Source of the DNA: Gemmatimonadota bacterium
GTDB lineage: Bacteria > Gemmatimonadota > Gemmatimonadetes > Longimicrobiales > Gaopeijiaceae
Assembly (NCBI GenBank): GCA_034521595.1
Contig: JAXHMG010000003.1
Location: 352,001-416,000 of the forward strand
Length of the DNA: 64,000 nt
Reading direction: 5' to 3'
The stretch's first letter is position 1; every line of letters begins with the position of its first letter. Below are positions 732-51,120 of the stretch, piece by piece. The notes under the pieces were generated by a model that was not told the DNA's origin, ran no database searches, and saw only the letters and a list, made by a program, of their open reading frames with translations. The translations under genes and the position numbers were made by a program.

Positions 732-3561
732 CTAGGGGAGGTTCGCTATGCCCACGCGGCGGTGTGGCGGCTTGCGCATGCGCGCCCGCACGTGCCAGCC
801 CACCGCCGCGGCGGCGGACAGCGCCACGAGCACGGCGACCAACGGGTTGGTCGGGCGGTTCAGGGGGACGCGTGCCGCCCCGTCGCCAATCACGGTGAAG
901 GCGGCCCAGTGCGCGACCGGCTCGTCCGCCTCGATGGCGCGCCTGCGGGCGAGCGCCAGGGCGTCGGCCACGGTCCGATCATCGGCGAGCCCGTCGTAGA
1001 TGTCCGTGACGAAGCGGGTGGCGGCCCGGTCGGCCACCCGCCACCGGGTCGCGATCACGGCGCGGCCTCCCGCTTCGAGGATCGGTGCGACGAGGCCGCG
1101 CAGGCCCTCCCCGCGCAGCACCCGGCCCGACGCCGTATGGCAGGCCGAGAGGACGACCAGGTCGGCGTCGAGAGAGAGCGCCGCGGCCTCCCCGGGCTTC
1201 AGTAGCCCGTCCTCCCCGTCACCGGGTGCGAGCACGAGCCCGGCCGAGAGCCCGGCGTAGTCGGTGATCGCGTGCGTGGCGGCGTGCACGACGCGGTAGC
1301 GGTCGAGCTCCGCGCCCTTGACCCAGGCCTCCGCGGCCTCGGCCCCCTGCCGCACGACCGCCTCGTCGGCGAACCCGGCCACGCGGCGTGCTTCCGCGCG
1401 GGCGGAAGGCAAGCTCGGAAGGTCTCCCCGAGCGGGGGCGTCGGCGAGCACCAAAGCCTCGGTGGCGCCGCTCCGCTCCGGTCGGCGCCAGAGCTCCAGG
1501 GCCACGCCCGCCGAAGGCGCGACCGTGACGCTCCAGCGTTCCGCCAGGTAGCGTCCGTCGGGAAGTCGCAATGCGCTCCACGGGACCTGGAAGAGCGCGC
1601 CGTGGGGCACGATGACCAGCTTCGATGCACCTTCGACGATCGGGTGGGTGCTGACCGGGTCGAGAAGCCGAGTGCTCAACCCGTTCGCGGGTGCCTCGGC
1701 GGGAAGGCCGCGGCTCCAGAGGTCGTGTAGTCGGTCGATGGCGGCGCGCAGGGAATCGGACGGAGGGATCCGCACCGTGGCGCTCTCGGTCGGATCGACG
1801 AGAAGAGCGGTCGTGGGCTCGTCGCCTTCGCCGGTGATGAACGAAACCAGGGTCGTGCCGTCTTCCAGCGCCGCCTGTACGGTGGTGAGGGTCGGGACGG
1901 GCGGTGTGGCTACGCCGTCCCGAGGCCGAGCGGCGTCCGCCAACGCGTCGGCGCGCAGCAGCTCACGGAGCAGCTCGCCGGCCCGGCTGCGCTCCGAGAG
2001 CCGGAACGCCGCGGCGGTGCGTCCGGCCTCGGCGAGGGTGGCGATCACGGTCGCGAACCCGAGATCCGGATCCGCGAGGTCCTCGCTCCGTTGGAACGCC
2101 CGCAGCCGCATCTCGCGCGGCCCCAGTTCGGCCCGCATGCGCTCGAGGGCGTCGAGCGCCTCGTCCGCGAGCGACACGGCGCGGTCCAGCTCCCCGTCGG
2201 TCGCGGCGAGCTCGGCGGCGCGCATGCGAAAGTGATAGCGCCAGAAATGCTCGTCGGCAGCGAGTGCCGACTCCGCCCAAGCGAGCTGTCGGGCCGCGGC
2301 AGCTCGATCACCCAGCGCCATCGCTACGGCGAGGGCCGTATAGCGCACCGTCGCCACGGTCGGGCCTCCGGCCCCGCCGATGCTCTCCTCCATGAGACGC
2401 TCCACCTGCTCGCGGGCGATATCGGACGCTCCGGCCCGGACTGCGGCGTAGGCCGCGCCGGTGCGGGCGCCCACGATCAGGTCTCGGTATCCGACCGCTT
2501 CGGCATCTCGAGTCAGGGCTTGGAAGGCCTCGAGGCTGGCTTCCGGCGCTCCGGAGCGGAGGAGCATTCGGGCTTCGACCTGCCGGAGCGATCCGACCTG
2601 AAGCAGATCGCCCTCGTCCCCGAAGCCGTCCAGGGCCCGGCGCGTGTACCGCAGGCCGGCCCTCGCGTCGCCGAGCTCCACATGGAGGAGCGCGAGGTTG
2701 AGCAGAGCCCAGTTGCGCACACCAACGACTCCCGCTTCTTCGGCGCGGCCCACTGCGGCTTCCAGATCTTCGGCGGCGAGACCGAACCGGCCCGTCGAGC
2801 GATCGAGGAAGCCTCGCCATTGGAGACCGATGGCTTGCCATCCGGGATCACCCACGCTGCGTGCGTCGTCGACGACCCCGGAGAAAACGGCGCGTGCGGA
2901 ATCGGGCCGTCCCGCGCCTACGAGGATGCCGCCCAGAACGGTGCCACAATAGGCGCGCATCCGTAGATCGTCCGCTTCGGTGGCGGCGCGGATGCCTCGC
3001 ATGGCGTGCTCCGTCCCCGGACGGCCCTCCACGGTGGCGATCTCGGCGCGGACACAGTGATACCGTGCGCGACTCTCCGCGGCGCGCAACGGCAGCGTTT
3101 GCTGGAGGCTGTCGAGGAGCGCGCGTCCGGCCGACGCTCCCCGAGTGCGGATCCGCACCTGCGCGAGCGAGAGGGGAATCTCCTCGGCGAGCCGGGCATC
3201 GTTCGCGGCATCCAGATGGTCGAGGGCGCGGGTGAGCAGGGTGTCCGCGGCGAAATATCGGTTCCCGATCACGTAGCGCCGTGCGAGCCCGTAGATCCCG
3301 AACGTCCGCCAGGGCTCGGGGGCGCGTTCCGAGAGCGCCTGGAAGTGCCGGTCGGCTCGGAGTGAGTCGTAGGAGTAGAGCCCCACCATGCCGAGCCCGA
3401 GGTGCGCGGGCCAGTCGTCCCTCGCCCTGTCCAGACGCGTATGCCATTGCTCGACGGCGGGCTACCGAGTCCAGCGCGGCCGCGCTGTCGGCGCGCTCGA
3501 CGACGGCCCAGGGATCCTGGGCCTGGAGTGCGCTCGCGATCAGAAGGGCCGGGATGATCAT
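732..3561 (-). CDS. TPR + CHAT (caspase HetF) domain protease with signal peptide and C-terminal TM; frameshift near 3460
   Basis: CHAT dyad motifs VVHAATHA and LVVLSACHT, plus HWAAFTVIG. Helical TPR-like N-terminal half. ATG at 3561 gives MIIPALLIASALQAQDPW, which joins ORF 732..3389 (AVEQWHTRL...GLGMVGLY) after a single frameshift. Confidence 0.85.
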
Positions 3562-37829: not shown

Positions 37830-38375
37830 ATGAGTAGACTCCTCTCCGTTCCGGCAGCGGTGCTCGTCACGGCTTTCACGGTCGTGGACGTGAGCGCGCA
37901 GCAGGATGGCCCGGAACCGCTCGACAGCATCCGCAACTTCCAGGTCGTCGACGACCGTCTCGCTTCGGCCGGTCAGATCGCCTACGACCAAGTTCCCCTC
38001 GTTCGGGAGCGCGGCTACGACGTCGTCATCAACCTGGCGGTGGCCGACGAGGAGCGGAACGGTCGGGAGGGCTTCCACGTGGCCAAGGAGGGTTTGACCT
38101 ACGTGCATATCCCCGTCGACTGGGAGGAGCCCCGGGTGGATGACGTCCGCGAGTTCTTCGACGTGATGGAGGCCAACCGGGACCGGAAGATCTTCGTGCA
38201 TTGCTTCGCGAACATGCGCGCCTCAGCCTTCGTTTACCTGTACCGGACGCTCGTGGAGGATGTCCCCGAGGCCGAGGCGCGGGCCACGTTGCATGCCGTC
38301 TGGGATCCGGCCGAGGAGGAACCGTGGGCGGATCTGATCGAGCGCGTGAAAGCGGAATACGCGACGGGCGGGTAG
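37830..38375 (+). CDS. Secreted DUF442/Blh-like Cys phosphatase-sulfurtransferase fold protein
   Basis: Signal peptide, LASAGQ, VINL, YVHIPV, active loop VHCFANMRAS (CX4R). Confidence 0.8.
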   Translation: MSRLLSVPAAVLVTAFTVVDVSAQQDGPEPLDSIRNFQVVDDRLASAGQIAYDQVPLVRERGYDVVINLAVADEERNGREGFHVAKEGLTYVHIPVDWEEPRVDDVREFFDVMEANRDRKIFVHCFANMRASAFVYLYRTLVEDVPEAEARATLHAVWDPAEEEPWADLIERVKAEYATGG

Positions 38376-38447
38376 GCGAGCGGCCGATGCTCGGTTAGCG
38401 TCTGCGACGAGCGAGGTCCGAAAACCATCCGACGATCCCGAAAGTCC

Positions 38448-39068
38448 ATGGCCCATATCCCCTACGTTCCCTACGACGAAGCCGAAGGTCTGTTGGCCGA
38501 GCTCTACGAAGAGTACGGGGGGCGGAGCGGGCGCGTCGACAACATCATCCGCATTCATTCGCTGAATCCCCGCTCCATGCGGGATCACGTGCGGCTGTAT
38601 GCTCATCTGATGCGAGGTCGTTCTCCGCTGAGCCGTGTACAGCGGGAGATGCTTGCCGTGGTGGTCTCCGCCGAGAACGACTGCTTCTACTGAATCAACC
38701 ATCACGGGGCGGGCCTCCGTACGTTGCTGGGATCCGACGCGCTCCCCAAAGCGCTGGCGAAGGACTACCGAGCGGCTGAGCTCGGTCTCGAAGATCGCGC
38801 GATGGTCGAGTACGCGGTCAAGCTGACGCGGTCGCCGCACAGCGTGAACGAGAGCGACATCGAGCGCTTGCGCGAGGCGGGGTTCGACGACACCGGCATC
38901 CTCGACATCTGTCAGGTGGTCTCGTACTACAACTACGTGAACCGGATGGCCGAAGGGCTGGGCGTCGAGTTGGAGGAGGATTGGGACGCCGCGGACCTCA
39001 CGGTGACCCGCGCGGAGTTCGAAGATCGGGCGCGCCGGCGCCGGCGGGGAACCGTCGACGGCGGTTGA
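38448..39068 (+). CDS. AhpD/CMD-family peroxidase-related selenoprotein (UGA at 38691-38693 read as Sec, CxxU)
   Basis: ORFs 38448..38693 and 38724..39068 are in the same frame. Junction reads REMLAVVVSAENDCFY-TGA-INHHG, the AhpD CxxCxxxH motif with UGA at the second Cys. The C-terminal half has the canonical VVSYYNYVNRMAEGLG. Confidence 0.85.
38694..38726 (+). promoter_or_regulatory. Putative bacterial SECIS hairpin
   Basis: Upper stem ACGGGG (38704-09) pairs with CTCCGT (38715-20) around a CGGGC loop, beginning at +11 after UGA. Lower stem CAAC (38696-99) pairs with GTTG (38723-26). Confidence 0.65.
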
Positions 39069-39154
39069 CGGTTCCGGGGGGCGGTACGCGGGTCGGCCGT
39101 CACGACCGTGACGACCCGTGAGTCGATATCTGCTTTTCCGAAGAGCCACGCGCA

Positions 39155-42049
39155 ATGACCATAAACACGCTTTTCACTCGCCTCCGCATTCCTCGTCCGA
39201 TCGCACGGTGGGGGCGGGCCGTGACCACGGGTGGAGCCCTCGCGGTTTGGGTTCTGGCGGTGCCACCGAACGTGACCCCCGTGGCGGCCCAAGCGGGAGG
39301 ACAGGAGGCCGTGCTCCGCGGGACGGTACACGCCCAGGGCACCGGACCGCTCGAGGGCGTATCCGTGACCTGGGAGCCCGAGGGACGGACCACCTCGACC
39401 GGCACCGCCGGTCGCTTCGAGCTCAACGTTCCGGAGGGGCGGGCCGGAACGTTGACGTTCGAGCACCCGACGCACTTTTCCGAGGAACGATCGACCCCGG
39501 CGCTGGGCCCGGGGGAGGTCCGGAGCTACGCGGTCACCCTGTCGCCCGTCTATGCCGTGGACGCGCTCGAGGTCGTCGCGCCGCGGCAGCGCCCCCTGTT
39601 GAACACGGACGATGCCGAAACCGGCGGCGCCGTGGAGCCGTACGAGCTCCGCGCCCTCCCGACGGAGTCGCGGCAGCCGCTCAACCTGGCGTTCAACGTG
39701 CCGGGGGTTTCTCAGGCCACGGGCTTCTTCGGTGACGCGCCCCCGCTCACGATCCATGGCGAGAACGCGCTCTACACGCAGTACACGATGGACGGTCTCG
39801 ACAACAACGAAGGATTCCTCGGAGGGCCGCGAGTCCAGCTTCCCCTGTCCGGCCTCGAGCGCCTGACCGTTCATGCCGCCACGTATCGGCCGGCGTTCGG
39901 ACGGACCAGCAACGGGGTGGTCGATGCGGAAACCCGTGCGGGAGGAAGTGAGTGGTCGGGGGAGACCTTCGTGGTGAATCGGCCGGGCACACCGATCGAT
40001 GCCGACCCGAAGTTCACACCGGCCGGCGTGGACCCGGAGGGCTTCGAGCGGACGCAGGTGGGTGGAGCGTTCGGCGGCCCGCTAGTGGCTGACCGGACGT
40101 TCGTGTTCGGCGCGGTCGAGTATACCAACGAGCAAGAGGATCGGATCGGCTCGACGGCCCGCACGGACTTCCTGGGCACCGAGGAGCGCGAGACGTGGAA
40201 GGCCCTCGCACGCATCGATCACGGGTGGTCGCCGTCCCAGACGACGACGCTACGGTTCGCTTTCAGCGACGAGCGACGCAAGGGTCAGGGCGGAGGCGTG
40301 ATCGTGCCGGAGGCCGACATCACGACGCGGAGGATCGGGAGCCTCACCAACGTCACGCACCGGACCTCCCTACAAGGCGGTCAGGCGAGCAACGAGCTCT
40401 CCTTCCAGATCGGCACGTTCACCTGGGACTTCCCACCGACGGCGAGCGACCTCGAGACGCCGCGGGTCGAGATCCGGTCCCCGGACGGCGAGACTCAGGC
40501 AGTGGTCGGCTCGAGCAACTTCATCTTCGACGAGTCCGAGCTCCAGTTCCAGATCAAGGAGCTGTTCGAAGCCCGCCTGGGGGATCGACATACGCTGCGA
40601 GCCGGTGTCGACGTCGTGCGGTCCGACTTCGAGCTCCTCGGAGCGAACACCAATCCGGAAGGGGCCTACGTCGTGATCGACGAGGGGAACATCGAGCCCT
40701 CGGGGCGTTTCCTCTCGATCAGCGATGTTCCGGACGATGTGCGCGTGTTCAGCTACACGATCGACGCCAACCCGCAGCAGGTGAATCTGAGCCAGACGCT
40801 CTGGAGCGCGTTCGTCGAGGACCGTTGGCGGATCACACCCTCGCTCACGGTCCAGGCGGGCTTGCGTTGGGACTACGACGACATCACCTCACGGGGCCGG
40901 AGCGATCCCGATCTCGACAACATCCAACCCCGCGCTTCGTTCAACTGGTTCGCCACGCCCAACAGCGTGGTGCGCGGTGGTTGGGGGCTCTACACCGGGA
41001 AGTTTCCCTACAGCGTGTATTCCGATGCCGTGCAGTTCGGTGAAGAGGGGAATGCGGTCGTTACCTTCACGGAGGGCACGGCCTTCCCGCCGCCCGATTT
41101 CGGCGAGGGGCCTTCGGCCGCCGAGATCGAGGCTCTCGAAGACGACCTGCCCCCGCGGGAGGTACGGCGCATGTTCGCCAACGGGTTGGAGCAGCCCTAC
41201 GCCTCACAGGCTACCATCGGCTATCAGCGGCAGCTCGGGGACGTCTGGAGCGTGTCCGTGGACGGCGTCTGGGTCGAGACGCGCAACCTGCCGCGGTCGT
41301 GGGACCTGAACGCCATCGAGCGCACGCTGCAGCCGGGCGACACGATCGACCGGAGTCCGGAGTTCGGAGACCAGTTCCGGCCCATCGAGCCCGTCCCGGG
41401 CGGCTTTCGGAGATTGACGACCACCGATTCCGGAGGGGAGAGCCGCTATCTGGGGCTCCACACCACGGTCCGCCGGCTTCTCGCGGACGGATTCGCGGTG
41501 GAGGGGACGTGGGTCTGGTCCGAGGCGAAGAACGACACGGAGGACATCAACTTCCATGCGGTTCAGGGCAACGACTTCGAGTCGGAGTGGGCGCCGGCGG
41601 TCAACGACCGGACCCATCAGGTCACGGCGCGCGGGGTCTGGGCGCCGCTCGAAGCGCTCGAGGTCGCCGGCGTGATCGACTGGCAGACGGGAACGCCCGT
41701 GAACCGGATCGCCTTCCAGCGGGACCTCGACGGCTCCGGGCCCATCTTCGGGAACGGCTTCGTCGGAAATCACGACCGCTTTCCCGGGGTCTCGCGTAAC
41801 ACCGGGCGGCTTCCCGACGCCTGGCAGATCAACGGGAGCGTCGCCTACGACATCGACGTGGGGCCGGGGGAGCTCGGCCTGCGGGCCGAGGCGTTCAACA
41901 TCTTGAACCGCACGAACTTCACGGGCTTCGTCAACGGTATTCCCGGAGGAGGCCCGAGAACCCAGAACGGCCGCCCGGGTGATCCGATGGAGTTCACGAC
42001 GGCCGCGCCGCCCCGACAGTTCCAGTTCTCGGCGCAGTGGGCTTTTTGA
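39155..42049 (+). CDS. TonB-dependent receptor with N-terminal carboxypeptidase-regulatory-like domain
   Basis: Signal peptide, YTMDGLDNN plug motif, GLRWDYD, PRASFNW, EAFNILN, C-terminal aromatic (QFSAQWAF). Confidence 0.92.
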   Translation: MTINTLFTRLRIPRPIARWGRAVTTGGALAVWVLAVPPNVTPVAAQAGGQEAVLRGTVHAQGTGPLEGVSVTWEPEGRTTSTGTAGRFELNVPEGRAGTLTFEHPTHFSEERSTPALGPGEVRSYAVTLSPVYAVDALEVVAPRQRPLLNTDDAETGGAVEPYELRALPTESRQPLNLAFNVPGVSQATGFFGDAPPLTIHGENALYTQYTMDGLDNNEGFLGGPRVQLPLSGLERLTVHAATYRPAFGRTSNGVVDAETRAGGSEWSGETFVVNRPGTPIDADPKFTPAGVDPEGFERTQVGGAFGGPLVADRTFVFGAVEYTNEQEDRIGSTARTDFLGTEERETWKALARIDHGWSPSQTTTLRFAFSDERRKGQGGGVIVPEADITTRRIGSLTNVTHRTSLQGGQASNELSFQIGTFTWDFPPTASDLETPRVEIRSPDGETQAVVGSSNFIFDESELQFQIKELFEARLGDRHTLRAGVDVVRSDFELLGANTNPEGAYVVIDEGNIEPSGRFLSISDVPDDVRVFSYTIDANPQQVNLSQTLWSAFVEDRWRITPSLTVQAGLRWDYDDITSRGRSDPDLDNIQPRASFNWFATPNSVVRGGWGLYTGKFPYSVYSDAVQFGEEGNAVVTFTEGTAFPPPDFGEGPSAAEIEALEDDLPPREVRRMFANGLEQPYASQATIGYQRQLGDVWSVSVDGVWVETRNLPRSWDLNAIERTLQPGDTIDRSPEFGDQFRPIEPVPGGFRRLTTTDSGGESRYLGLHTTVRRLLADGFAVEGTWVWSEAKNDTEDINFHAVQGNDFESEWAPAVNDRTHQVTARGVWAPLEALEVAGVIDWQTGTPVNRIAFQRDLDGSGPIFGNGFVGNHDRFPGVSRNTGRLPDAWQINGSVAYDIDVGPGELGLRAEAFNILNRTNFTGFVNGIPGGGPRTQNGRPGDPMEFTTAAPPRQFQFSAQWAF

Positions 42050-50550: not shown

Positions 50551-51120
50551 ATGACCGACTTCAAGCTCCAGACCGCTGAAACCGCCACGCCCGAGGGCCG
50601 CGAAGCCATCGAGAAGGCTGAGCAGGGCATGGGCTTCGCGCCCAACCTGGTCAAGATCCTCGCCAACGCTCCAGCGGCGGCCCATGCCTATCTCGACCTC
50701 AACGCGCTGCTCGACAGTACTTCCCTGTCGCCACAGGAGCAGCAGGTGGTGTTGCTTGCCACGAGCTTCGAGAACGAGTGCGGTTATTGCATGGGGGCCC
50801 ATTCGACCGTGGCCGGGATGGTCGGGCTCGACGACGGTGATCTCCAAGCGATTCGTGAGGGCACCGAGCTGCCCACCGCCCGCTTGAACGCGCTCCGGGA
50901 TTTCACCCGAGCCGTCGTGCGGAAGCGCGGTTATGTGACCGAGGACGACATTCGTCGATTCCGTGACGCGGGCTTCGAGCAGGAGCAGGTGCTCGAGGTG
51001 CTCCTCGGCGTCGCGATGAAGACCCTCTCGAACTACACGAACCACATCGCCAATACGCCGCTCGACGAGGCGTTCCAGGCGCAGCAGTGGTCGCCTCCGA
51101 AGGGTGCGGTCACCGCGTGA
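50551..51120 (+). CDS. AhpD/carboxymuconolactone decarboxylase family protein (CxxC)
   Basis: GFAPNL, ENECGYCMGAH, KTLSNYTNH. Confidence 0.92.
   Translation: MTDFKLQTAETATPEGREAIEKAEQGMGFAPNLVKILANAPAAAHAYLDLNALLDSTSLSPQEQQVVLLATSFENECGYCMGAHSTVAGMVGLDDGDLQAIREGTELPTARLNALRDFTRAVVRKRGYVTEDDIRRFRDAGFEQEQVLEVLLGVAMKTLSNYTNHIANTPLDEAFQAQQWSPPKGAVTA

Follow-up and report, generated by a model that had tools for sequence, protein, structure and literature searches.

The 64,000-nucleotide stretch of Gemmatimonadota DNA analysed here (the window; positions are counted from its first letter unless a genome contig is named) almost certainly carries, at 38448-39068 on the forward strand, one intact gene for a 206-residue AhpD-like selenoprotein with the CMD fold, belonging to the TIGR01926 'peroxidase-related' family. 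As judged from the sequence, the in-frame UGA at 38691-38693 would be decoded as selenocysteine (Sec), with a hairpin at 38704-38720 recruiting SelB. On the same grounds the gene is classed as a genuine selenoprotein gene, and as a new member of the AhpD-like CxxU family that has been known since 2005. The features discussed below are collected in Table 1.

Table 1. Positions of the selenoprotein gene, its predicted RNA element and other probable Sec genes of the same genome (G000; C2 and C3 are contigs of that genome, and the loci so labelled lie outside the window)
Feature	Position	Strand	Evidence
AhpD-like selenoprotein CDS, complete (206 codons and terminal TGA)	38448..39068	+	Frame; TIGR01926 match; PDB 3c1l match; homologue alignments
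UGA predicted to be read as Sec (U82), second position of the CxxC-type redox motif	38691..38693	+	TGA in 53/61 distinct homologous genes; second Cys in 3c1l, 2pfx and 6k40
TGC, Cys79, partner of U82	38682..38684	+	Cys in 52/52 Sec-form homologues and 30/30 relatives' loci
GAG, Glu67, Glu position of the AhpD proton relay, 12 residues before Cys79	38646..38648	+	Glu in 52/52
CAC, His86, His position of the proton relay, 4 residues after U82, within the SECIS 5' arm	38703..38705	+	His and CAC in 52/52
SECIS upper hairpin: 6-bp stem 38704-38709 (ACGGGG) / 38715-38720 (CTCCGT), 5-nt loop CGGGC 38710-38714	38704..38720	+	98.3% paired cells; frozen synonymous sites
Lower stem, outer limits: CAAC 38696-38699 / GTTG 38723-38726, enclosing the upper hairpin, partly conserved	38696..38726	+	62.5% paired cells
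selD, in-frame TGA in G-A-G-U-A-C-K	G000:C3:3027242-3028168	-	Profile match; translation
AhpC/TSA-family gene, U-P-Y-C (UxxC), about 2.6 kb from selD on the same strand	G000:C3:3030757	-	Domain spans TGA
Five further genes with a domain across the TGA	G000:C2:180809; C2:120807; C3:1829776; C3:323505; C3:322820	-; -; +; -; -	Pfam

Gene structure and family assignment

The reading frame opens with the ATG at 38448 and closes with a TGA at 39066-39068, and the window sequence contains a further in-frame TGA between the two. When the frame is translated with table 11, it is broken into two ORFs of 81 and 114 amino acids, and the initial annotation had recognized that the ORF track splits a single gene in this way. 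With the internal TGA read as U, one product of 206 amino acids is obtained, carrying the motif N-D-C79-F-Y-U82-I-N-H-H-G. Alignments begin at query residue 1 in most of the 61 distinct homologous genes described below (all but four of those listed).

The read-through protein scores 145 bits against the NCBIfam model TIGR01926 (cut-off 81.8), and residues 7-174 correspond to profile positions 6-174 of 178, so that the curated cut-off is exceeded along the full length of the model and across the TGA. The family similarity that had been proposed to continue beyond the TGA is thus borne out. A match to the Pfam CMD domain (PF02627) is also found, at 36.9 bits. The best matches among solved structures are 3c1l (Mlr4105; 119 bits, residues 25-179), 2pfx (115 bits) and 6k40 ('AhpD'; 97 bits), and in each of these the CxxC motif is aligned to C-F-Y-U. 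This places the TGA exactly at the second Cys of the AhpD motif, where the initial annotation had put it. The spacing of the AhpD-type proton relay is preserved, with Sec in place of the second Cys, and all five positions of the set (E67, C79, Y81, U82 and H86) are invariant in 52 Sec-form homologues.

A second AhpD-like gene is present in the window at 50629-51075 on the forward strand. It encodes a Cys-type CMD protein of 149 residues with a C-G-Y-C motif and 26% identity to the selenoprotein, and contains no internal stop.

Conservation of the internal TGA and of the downstream half

A search with the read-through protein (threshold E <= 1e-10) was conducted in 61 genomes, consisting of 60 relatives and the genome from which the window is taken. 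Matches were detected in 33 of the 61, most of them with a single internal TGA; this tally includes G056, from which no locus was read. At the U82 column, the 30 loci from the relatives' genomes contain TGA in 22 cases and TGC or TGT in 8. The addition of 41 further loci from named genome records, nearly all labelled as Gemmatimonadota MAGs (Longimicrobiales or Gemmatimonadales) along with one Thermoanaerobaculia MAG, brings the total to 71 loci and 61 distinct coding sequences. Among these 61 sequences, which come from kin and are not independent samples, 53 have TGA at this column, 7 have TGC and 1 has TGT, and TAA or TAG never occurs. The TGA form is kept in homologues with as little as about 30% protein identity. 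In 22 of the 53 Sec-form genes (a count made from the listing) the terminal stop is TAG or TAA, and these too have TGA as the internal codon.

The CxxU motif with its in-frame UGA is therefore aligned to the second Cys of the Cys-type homologues (8 of the 61 genes, as well as the homologues in the PDB), and the alternation of Cys and TGA that had been suggested as a check is what the column displays. Since the codon is TGA in most genes, Cys in the rest, and never TAA or TAG, neither a random nonsense mutation nor a sequencing error nor a reassigned stop would be able to yield the pattern.

The part of the gene after the TGA is under purifying selection. In seven pairwise comparisons (the window against L023, L024, L025, L026, L027, L054 and L064), dN/dS for codons 93-180 is 0.09-0.32, with dS >= 0.8. 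For codons 1-81 the corresponding values are 0.04-0.10, in the five of the seven pairs that have unsaturated dS. Mean identity to 51 homologues is 0.59 downstream of the TGA as compared with 0.67 in the N-terminal part. Decay of the downstream half, which the initial annotation had named as grounds for abandoning a selenoprotein, is not what these values describe.

A rival reading is that the gene is a pseudogene, in which a nonsense substitution at the catalytic Cys codon would leave only an 81-residue fragment or no product at all, and both the division of the frame under table 11 and the other apparent lesions reported for the window in the initial annotation would fit. It is nevertheless very improbable, given the recurrence of TGA at the same column in 53 of the 61 distinct genes across such a range of identities (and never as TAA or TAG), the low dN/dS downstream, and the ability of the genome to decode Sec (vide infra).

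A further possibility is that the true codon is TGC or TGT and that the TGA arose in sequencing or assembly; at least one homopolymer-length disagreement, at 39134, with a contig from run X2 shows that the assembly is not free of errors. This is exceedingly improbable. A separately assembled contig of 1170 nt from run X1 covers 38300-39110 and is identical to the window apart from one difference at 38570, with none at the TGA. The base call, for which a check of the reads had been proposed, is thereby supported at the level of an assembled contig, and because 94% of the sampled words occur in X1, which may be the sample that the window came from, the agreement confirms the assembly and base call and not an independent organism. 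In addition, 52 other genes from other assemblies have TGA at the same column, and the conserved hairpin downstream would not be expected from an error.

The X2 disagreement itself lies in an intergenic T-run (39134-39137), which is one T shorter in the contig from X2, a run from the same sample as X1. Errors of homopolymer length in the window assembly may explain the indel 'lesions' mentioned in the initial annotation. Contigs from the RNA run X16 cover just 38670-38721 and 38934-38968, at under 95% likeness; this cover was rejected as evidence of transcription, as it represents a conserved piece from a relative in the RNA library. The partial cover of the locus in X3 likewise comes from relatives.

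Several relatives (G013, G017, G018, G020, G026, G027, G030 and G042) have two or three paralogues, each with an in-frame TGA; the genome under study has just one Sec copy of the AhpD-like family. A Sec-form homologue is also found in the Thermoanaerobaculia MAG (Acidobacteriota; locus L080, match at 3001-3537), with 57% identity and an upper hairpin identical in sequence to that of the Gemmatimonadota genes, and it may reflect either horizontal transfer or a binning error.

The SECIS hairpin

In bacterial Sec decoding, SelB with Sec-tRNA(Sec) binds an mRNA hairpin and delivers Sec at the UGA. In the gene described here, a stem-loop that is conserved in the Sec forms lies immediately 3' of the UGA. 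Its upper stem begins 10 nt after the UGA, and the hairpin falls inside the codons for H-H-G-A-G-L-R. The initial annotation had already drawn both the ACGGGG/CTCCGT hairpin and the CAAC/GTTG lower stem; their location stands and their conservation can now be traced across relatives, but stability alone proves nothing. Folded on its own, the hairpin gains nothing in stability over dinucleotide shuffles (z between -0.05 and +1.49), and a scan of the whole window against Rfam at the gathering threshold gave no match. As there is no folding signal above that of the shuffles, stability was dropped as an argument, and the evidence for the hairpin is comparative.

Pairing was analysed in the 48 nt from the TGA, aligned in 52 Sec-form genes that comprise 50 distinct sequences. 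Across these 50 sequences, pairing is kept in 98.3% of the cells of the upper stem. Its fifth pair is a G.U wobble in 28 of them and A-U in the other 22, and the distant homologue L049 has a compensatory change from G-C to C-G. For the lower stem the paired share of cells is 62.5%, and each of its four pairs has sequences in which both partners are changed, with C-G turned into G-C in 7. For the structure as a whole, the covariation score was reached by 0 of 500 shuffles and the paired fraction by 1 of 500, and slid controls paired 31-42% of cells versus 84% for the actual structure. The covariation in the upper stem is thin, amounting to one truly compensatory change and one wobble alternation. 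The SECIS is near-invariant across the Sec-form genes and in one Thermoanaerobaculia genome, and the long-branch sequences L049 and L050 depart from it.

Synonymous codon use is stronger evidence for an RNA element than pairing across homologues. Arg91 is encoded by CGT in 49 of 52 genes, although this codon accounts for only 15% of their Arg codons overall; at four other conserved Arg columns the codon entropy is about 2 bits. The other codons of the stem are similarly restricted, with Leu90 as CTC in 50/52, Ala88 as GCG in 49/50 and His86 as CAC in 52/52, and Gly87 is only ever GGG or GGA, the two codons with a third base able to pair with U. Gly89, the third base of which is the last nucleotide of the loop, uses all four Gly codons (1.95 bits). 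Averaged over residues 85-91, synonymous-codon entropy is 0.67 bits, versus 1.28 elsewhere. In L037, the only Cys-form gene to fall among the Sec forms in a quick tree, with weak support (SH-aLRT 86), CTC CGT is replaced by CTG CGG, which breaks the pairing. The upper stem varies too little for conservation at the protein level to be fully separated from a constraint on the RNA, and the pattern at synonymous sites argues for the RNA.

Sec machinery and other Sec genes in the genome

The genome assembly (3.49 Mb in 3 contigs, 93% complete) encodes the full set of Sec decoding components. Matches over the respective cut-offs were found for selA (542 bits), selB (313.5 bits, or 333.9 when its C-terminal piece is included) and selD (375 bits), the last of which itself has an in-frame TGA, in G-A-G-U-A-C-K. 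A tRNA-Sec was found at 68.9 bits, with the anticodon TCA according to ARAGORN. The initial annotation had predicted that the host would have selA, selB, selC and selD, and with these matches the prediction holds. Its proposal of a 206-aa selenoprotein is supported by the alternation of TGA and Cys, the Sec machinery, the base call in the X1 contig and the constraint on the downstream sequence.

A genome-wide scan for in-frame TGA codons with coding-like composition on both sides returned 154 candidates, of which 20 were picked by eye and compared with Pfam. A Pfam domain spans the TGA in 6 of these 20; in another 6 the domains are one-sided, which marks them as ordinary gene ends, and 8 have no match. 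Besides the UxxC AhpC/TSA-family gene near selD, the domain-spanning candidates are two OsmC-like genes, a molybdopterin oxidoreductase similar to formate dehydrogenase, and two AhpC/TSA genes that stand in tandem and carry T-x-x-U. A hairpin is found soon after the TGA in each of the six and in selD. Counting these six together with selD and the AhpD-like gene, the genome probably has at least eight Sec genes, a lower bound because the scan was crude and its GC3 filter missed the AhpD-like gene itself (upstream GC3 of 0.72).

At one other locus (L101, G000:C3:1522560, forward strand), a TGA follows the Cys-rich tail (G-C-C) of a CMD-domain protein and is in frame with an ArsA-type ATPase. It is probably an ordinary stop between two genes that share a frame, with a C-terminal Sec as a less probable alternative.

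Distribution of selA and of the Sec and Cys forms

Across the same 60 relatives and the genome under study, selA was matched in 37 of 61 genomes (a tally that includes G056). It was found in 20 of the 22 genomes that have the TGA form; the two in which it was not found are the fragmented assemblies of G014 (88% complete) and G013 (78% complete). Of the eight genomes with the Cys form only, one (G035) has selA, and the seven without it are 78-97% complete. This correlation is given without a statistic, as the genomes are kin and not independent. Within a single order, selA is present in 12/12 genomes of one family (f3) and in 0/12 of another (f2), and the Sec trait seems to have been gained or lost at the family level.

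These distributions also bear on whether the UGA might be recoded as something other than Sec, either by near-cognate read-through as Trp or Cys or through a reassigned TGA, or whether the locus might consist of two genes, the second starting from the TTG at 38724. Such a start could give the 114-residue ORF. These readings are nonetheless highly improbable. TGA is an ordinary terminator here (39066-39068) and in most of the homologues, which speaks against reassignment; Cys is the one alternative to TGA at this column, a pattern that is the hallmark of Sec, and the presence of the TGA form tracks selA. As for two genes, one domain model spans both halves, and codons 83-92, between the TGA and the TTG, are conserved as protein (His85 in 50/52, His86 in 52/52) and are therefore translated.

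With the UGA read as Sec, it is quite possible, and is suggested here only tentatively, that the gene is one marker of a selenoproteome of some size that has so far gone undescribed in Gemmatimonadota of the Longimicrobiales type. Switches between its Sec and Cys forms might then accompany the gain and loss of selA, and the near-invariant SECIS may hint that gene and SECIS were transferred horizontally as a unit.

Genomic neighbourhood

Neighbouring genes encode a DSP-phosphatase-like protein, a TonB-dependent receptor and a Na+/H+ exchanger. A search for the three neighbouring proteins at the 61 loci detected, besides the locus itself, one further locus for each of the two flanking genes and none for the Na+/H+ exchanger, so that the flanking genes have counterparts beside the locus in the closest relatives only. 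Given this lack of conserved synteny, no operon partner can be proposed. No ahpC gene is adjacent to the locus, and a scan of 38200-39300 for promoters and terminators found neither.

Proposed mechanism

In the mechanism envisaged, SelB carrying Sec-tRNA(Sec) would be recruited by the hairpin and Sec would be inserted at the UGA. The resulting Sec82 would replace the second Cys of the CxxC motif within the relay Glu67/Cys79/Tyr81/Sec82/His86. The second Cys of this motif was reportedly identified by Koshkin et al. in 2003 as the attacking nucleophile in M. tuberculosis AhpD. By extension from the AhpD family, as portrayed in passages of PMC3141380, Sec82 and Cys79 would form the redox pair, aided by Glu67, Tyr81, His86 and a water molecule. 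Catalysis most likely involves a cycle between selenol/thiol and selenenylsulfide states of the enzyme. The enzyme may be a weak hydroperoxidase itself, or it may reduce a peroxiredoxin in the way that M. tuberculosis AhpD reduces AhpC; because no peroxiredoxin gene is adjacent, the latter role is an analogy only.

Implications for annotation

Standard gene callers split this gene or mark it as broken, and the same is to be expected for the other Sec genes of the genome and for those of its relatives. Recognition of such genes would correct the gene count and would indicate that the lineage relies on selenium for part of its defence against oxidative stress. The locus is also a clean teaching example of an RNA signal that is visible inside a coding sequence without experiment, with the codons of the stem frozen and that of the loop drifting. 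The result will not surprise a specialist, as the family is already catalogued; it raises no new question about Sec decoding or AhpD chemistry, and its value is chiefly in annotation.

Comparison with known systems

According to the relevant passages of PMC3141380, the AhpD proton relay consists of Glu118/Cys130/His132/Cys133/His137 in M. tuberculosis and of Glu36/Cys48/Tyr50/Cys51/His55 in P. aeruginosa PA0269. The selenoprotein shares with both an identical relay spacing, namely Glu, 11 residues, Cys-x-(His/Tyr)-Cys, 3 residues and His, with Sec at the second Cys. The spacing of Glu67 and Cys79 equals that of Glu36/Cys48 and Glu118/Cys130, and the spacing of U82 and His86 equals that of Cys51/His55 and Cys133/His137, the residue numbers being those quoted in the same passages (PMC3141380). 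Sequence kinship with these two proteins is distant, however, with a match of 25 bits between PA0269 and the read-through protein. M. tuberculosis AhpD also differs in that its motif lies in the C-terminal helix pair and its gene is located beside ahpC, whereas the gene described here has no peroxiredoxin gene next to it.

Among Cys-type 'peroxidase-related' structures, 3c1l (Mlr4105), 2pfx, 2oyo, 2prr and 6k40 match at 86-119 bits over ranges comparable to residues 25-179, and in the alignments with 3c1l, 2pfx and 6k40 the CxxC at C-F-Y-U is followed by a conserved His-Gly-Ala, as in the selenoprotein. All five have Cys where the selenoprotein has its predicted Sec, and they are mostly structural-genomics entries without a known substrate. 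The NF041238 family of (seleno)proteins, 'AhpD_rel_CFYUT', has a nearly identical Sec motif, and its C-terminal domain (profile positions 151-341 of 357) can be aligned. The score is only 59 bits against a cut-off of 175, and NF041238 proteins are longer, with an extra N-terminal half. Membership in this family was therefore rejected.

The closest known system is the AhpD-like CxxU family itself (COG2128/TIGR01926). Portions of PMC1088965 introduce it among selenoprotein families newly reported for the Sargasso Sea metagenome, with 27 sequences assigned to COG2128 and predicted SECIS elements, and the corresponding section of PMC2398784 lists 299 Sec sequences and 902 Cys homologues of 'AhpD-like 1' in the GOS data. 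More recently, an entry in a 2026 review reads 'AhpD-like protein, TIGR01926, CxxU' (in an excerpt of PMC13188914), and the AhpD-like family serves as the browsing example in the part of PMC13326102 that presents BSepDB. The statement in the initial annotation that AhpD-like selenoproteins had been predicted in other bacteria accords with these excerpts (PMC1088965, PMC2398784 and PMC13188914). The word stem 'Gemmatimon' is absent from the two 2026 papers, PMC13188914 and PMC13326102. A full-text literature search for Gemmatimonad selenoproteins gave no paper on the subject as judged by title; the entries of BSepDB and the supplements of the papers, outside the scope of that search, may already list such members.

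The gene resembles this family in having a domain model that exceeds its cut-off, a predicted Sec at the second position of the motif, and a SECIS-type hairpin just after the UGA, and no difference in kind from it was found. What sets the gene described here apart is its origin in a Gemmatimonadota lineage, a SECIS that is almost invariant across the clade, and a 27-residue Arg-rich C-terminal tail that extends past residue 179, the last to be aligned to 3c1l.
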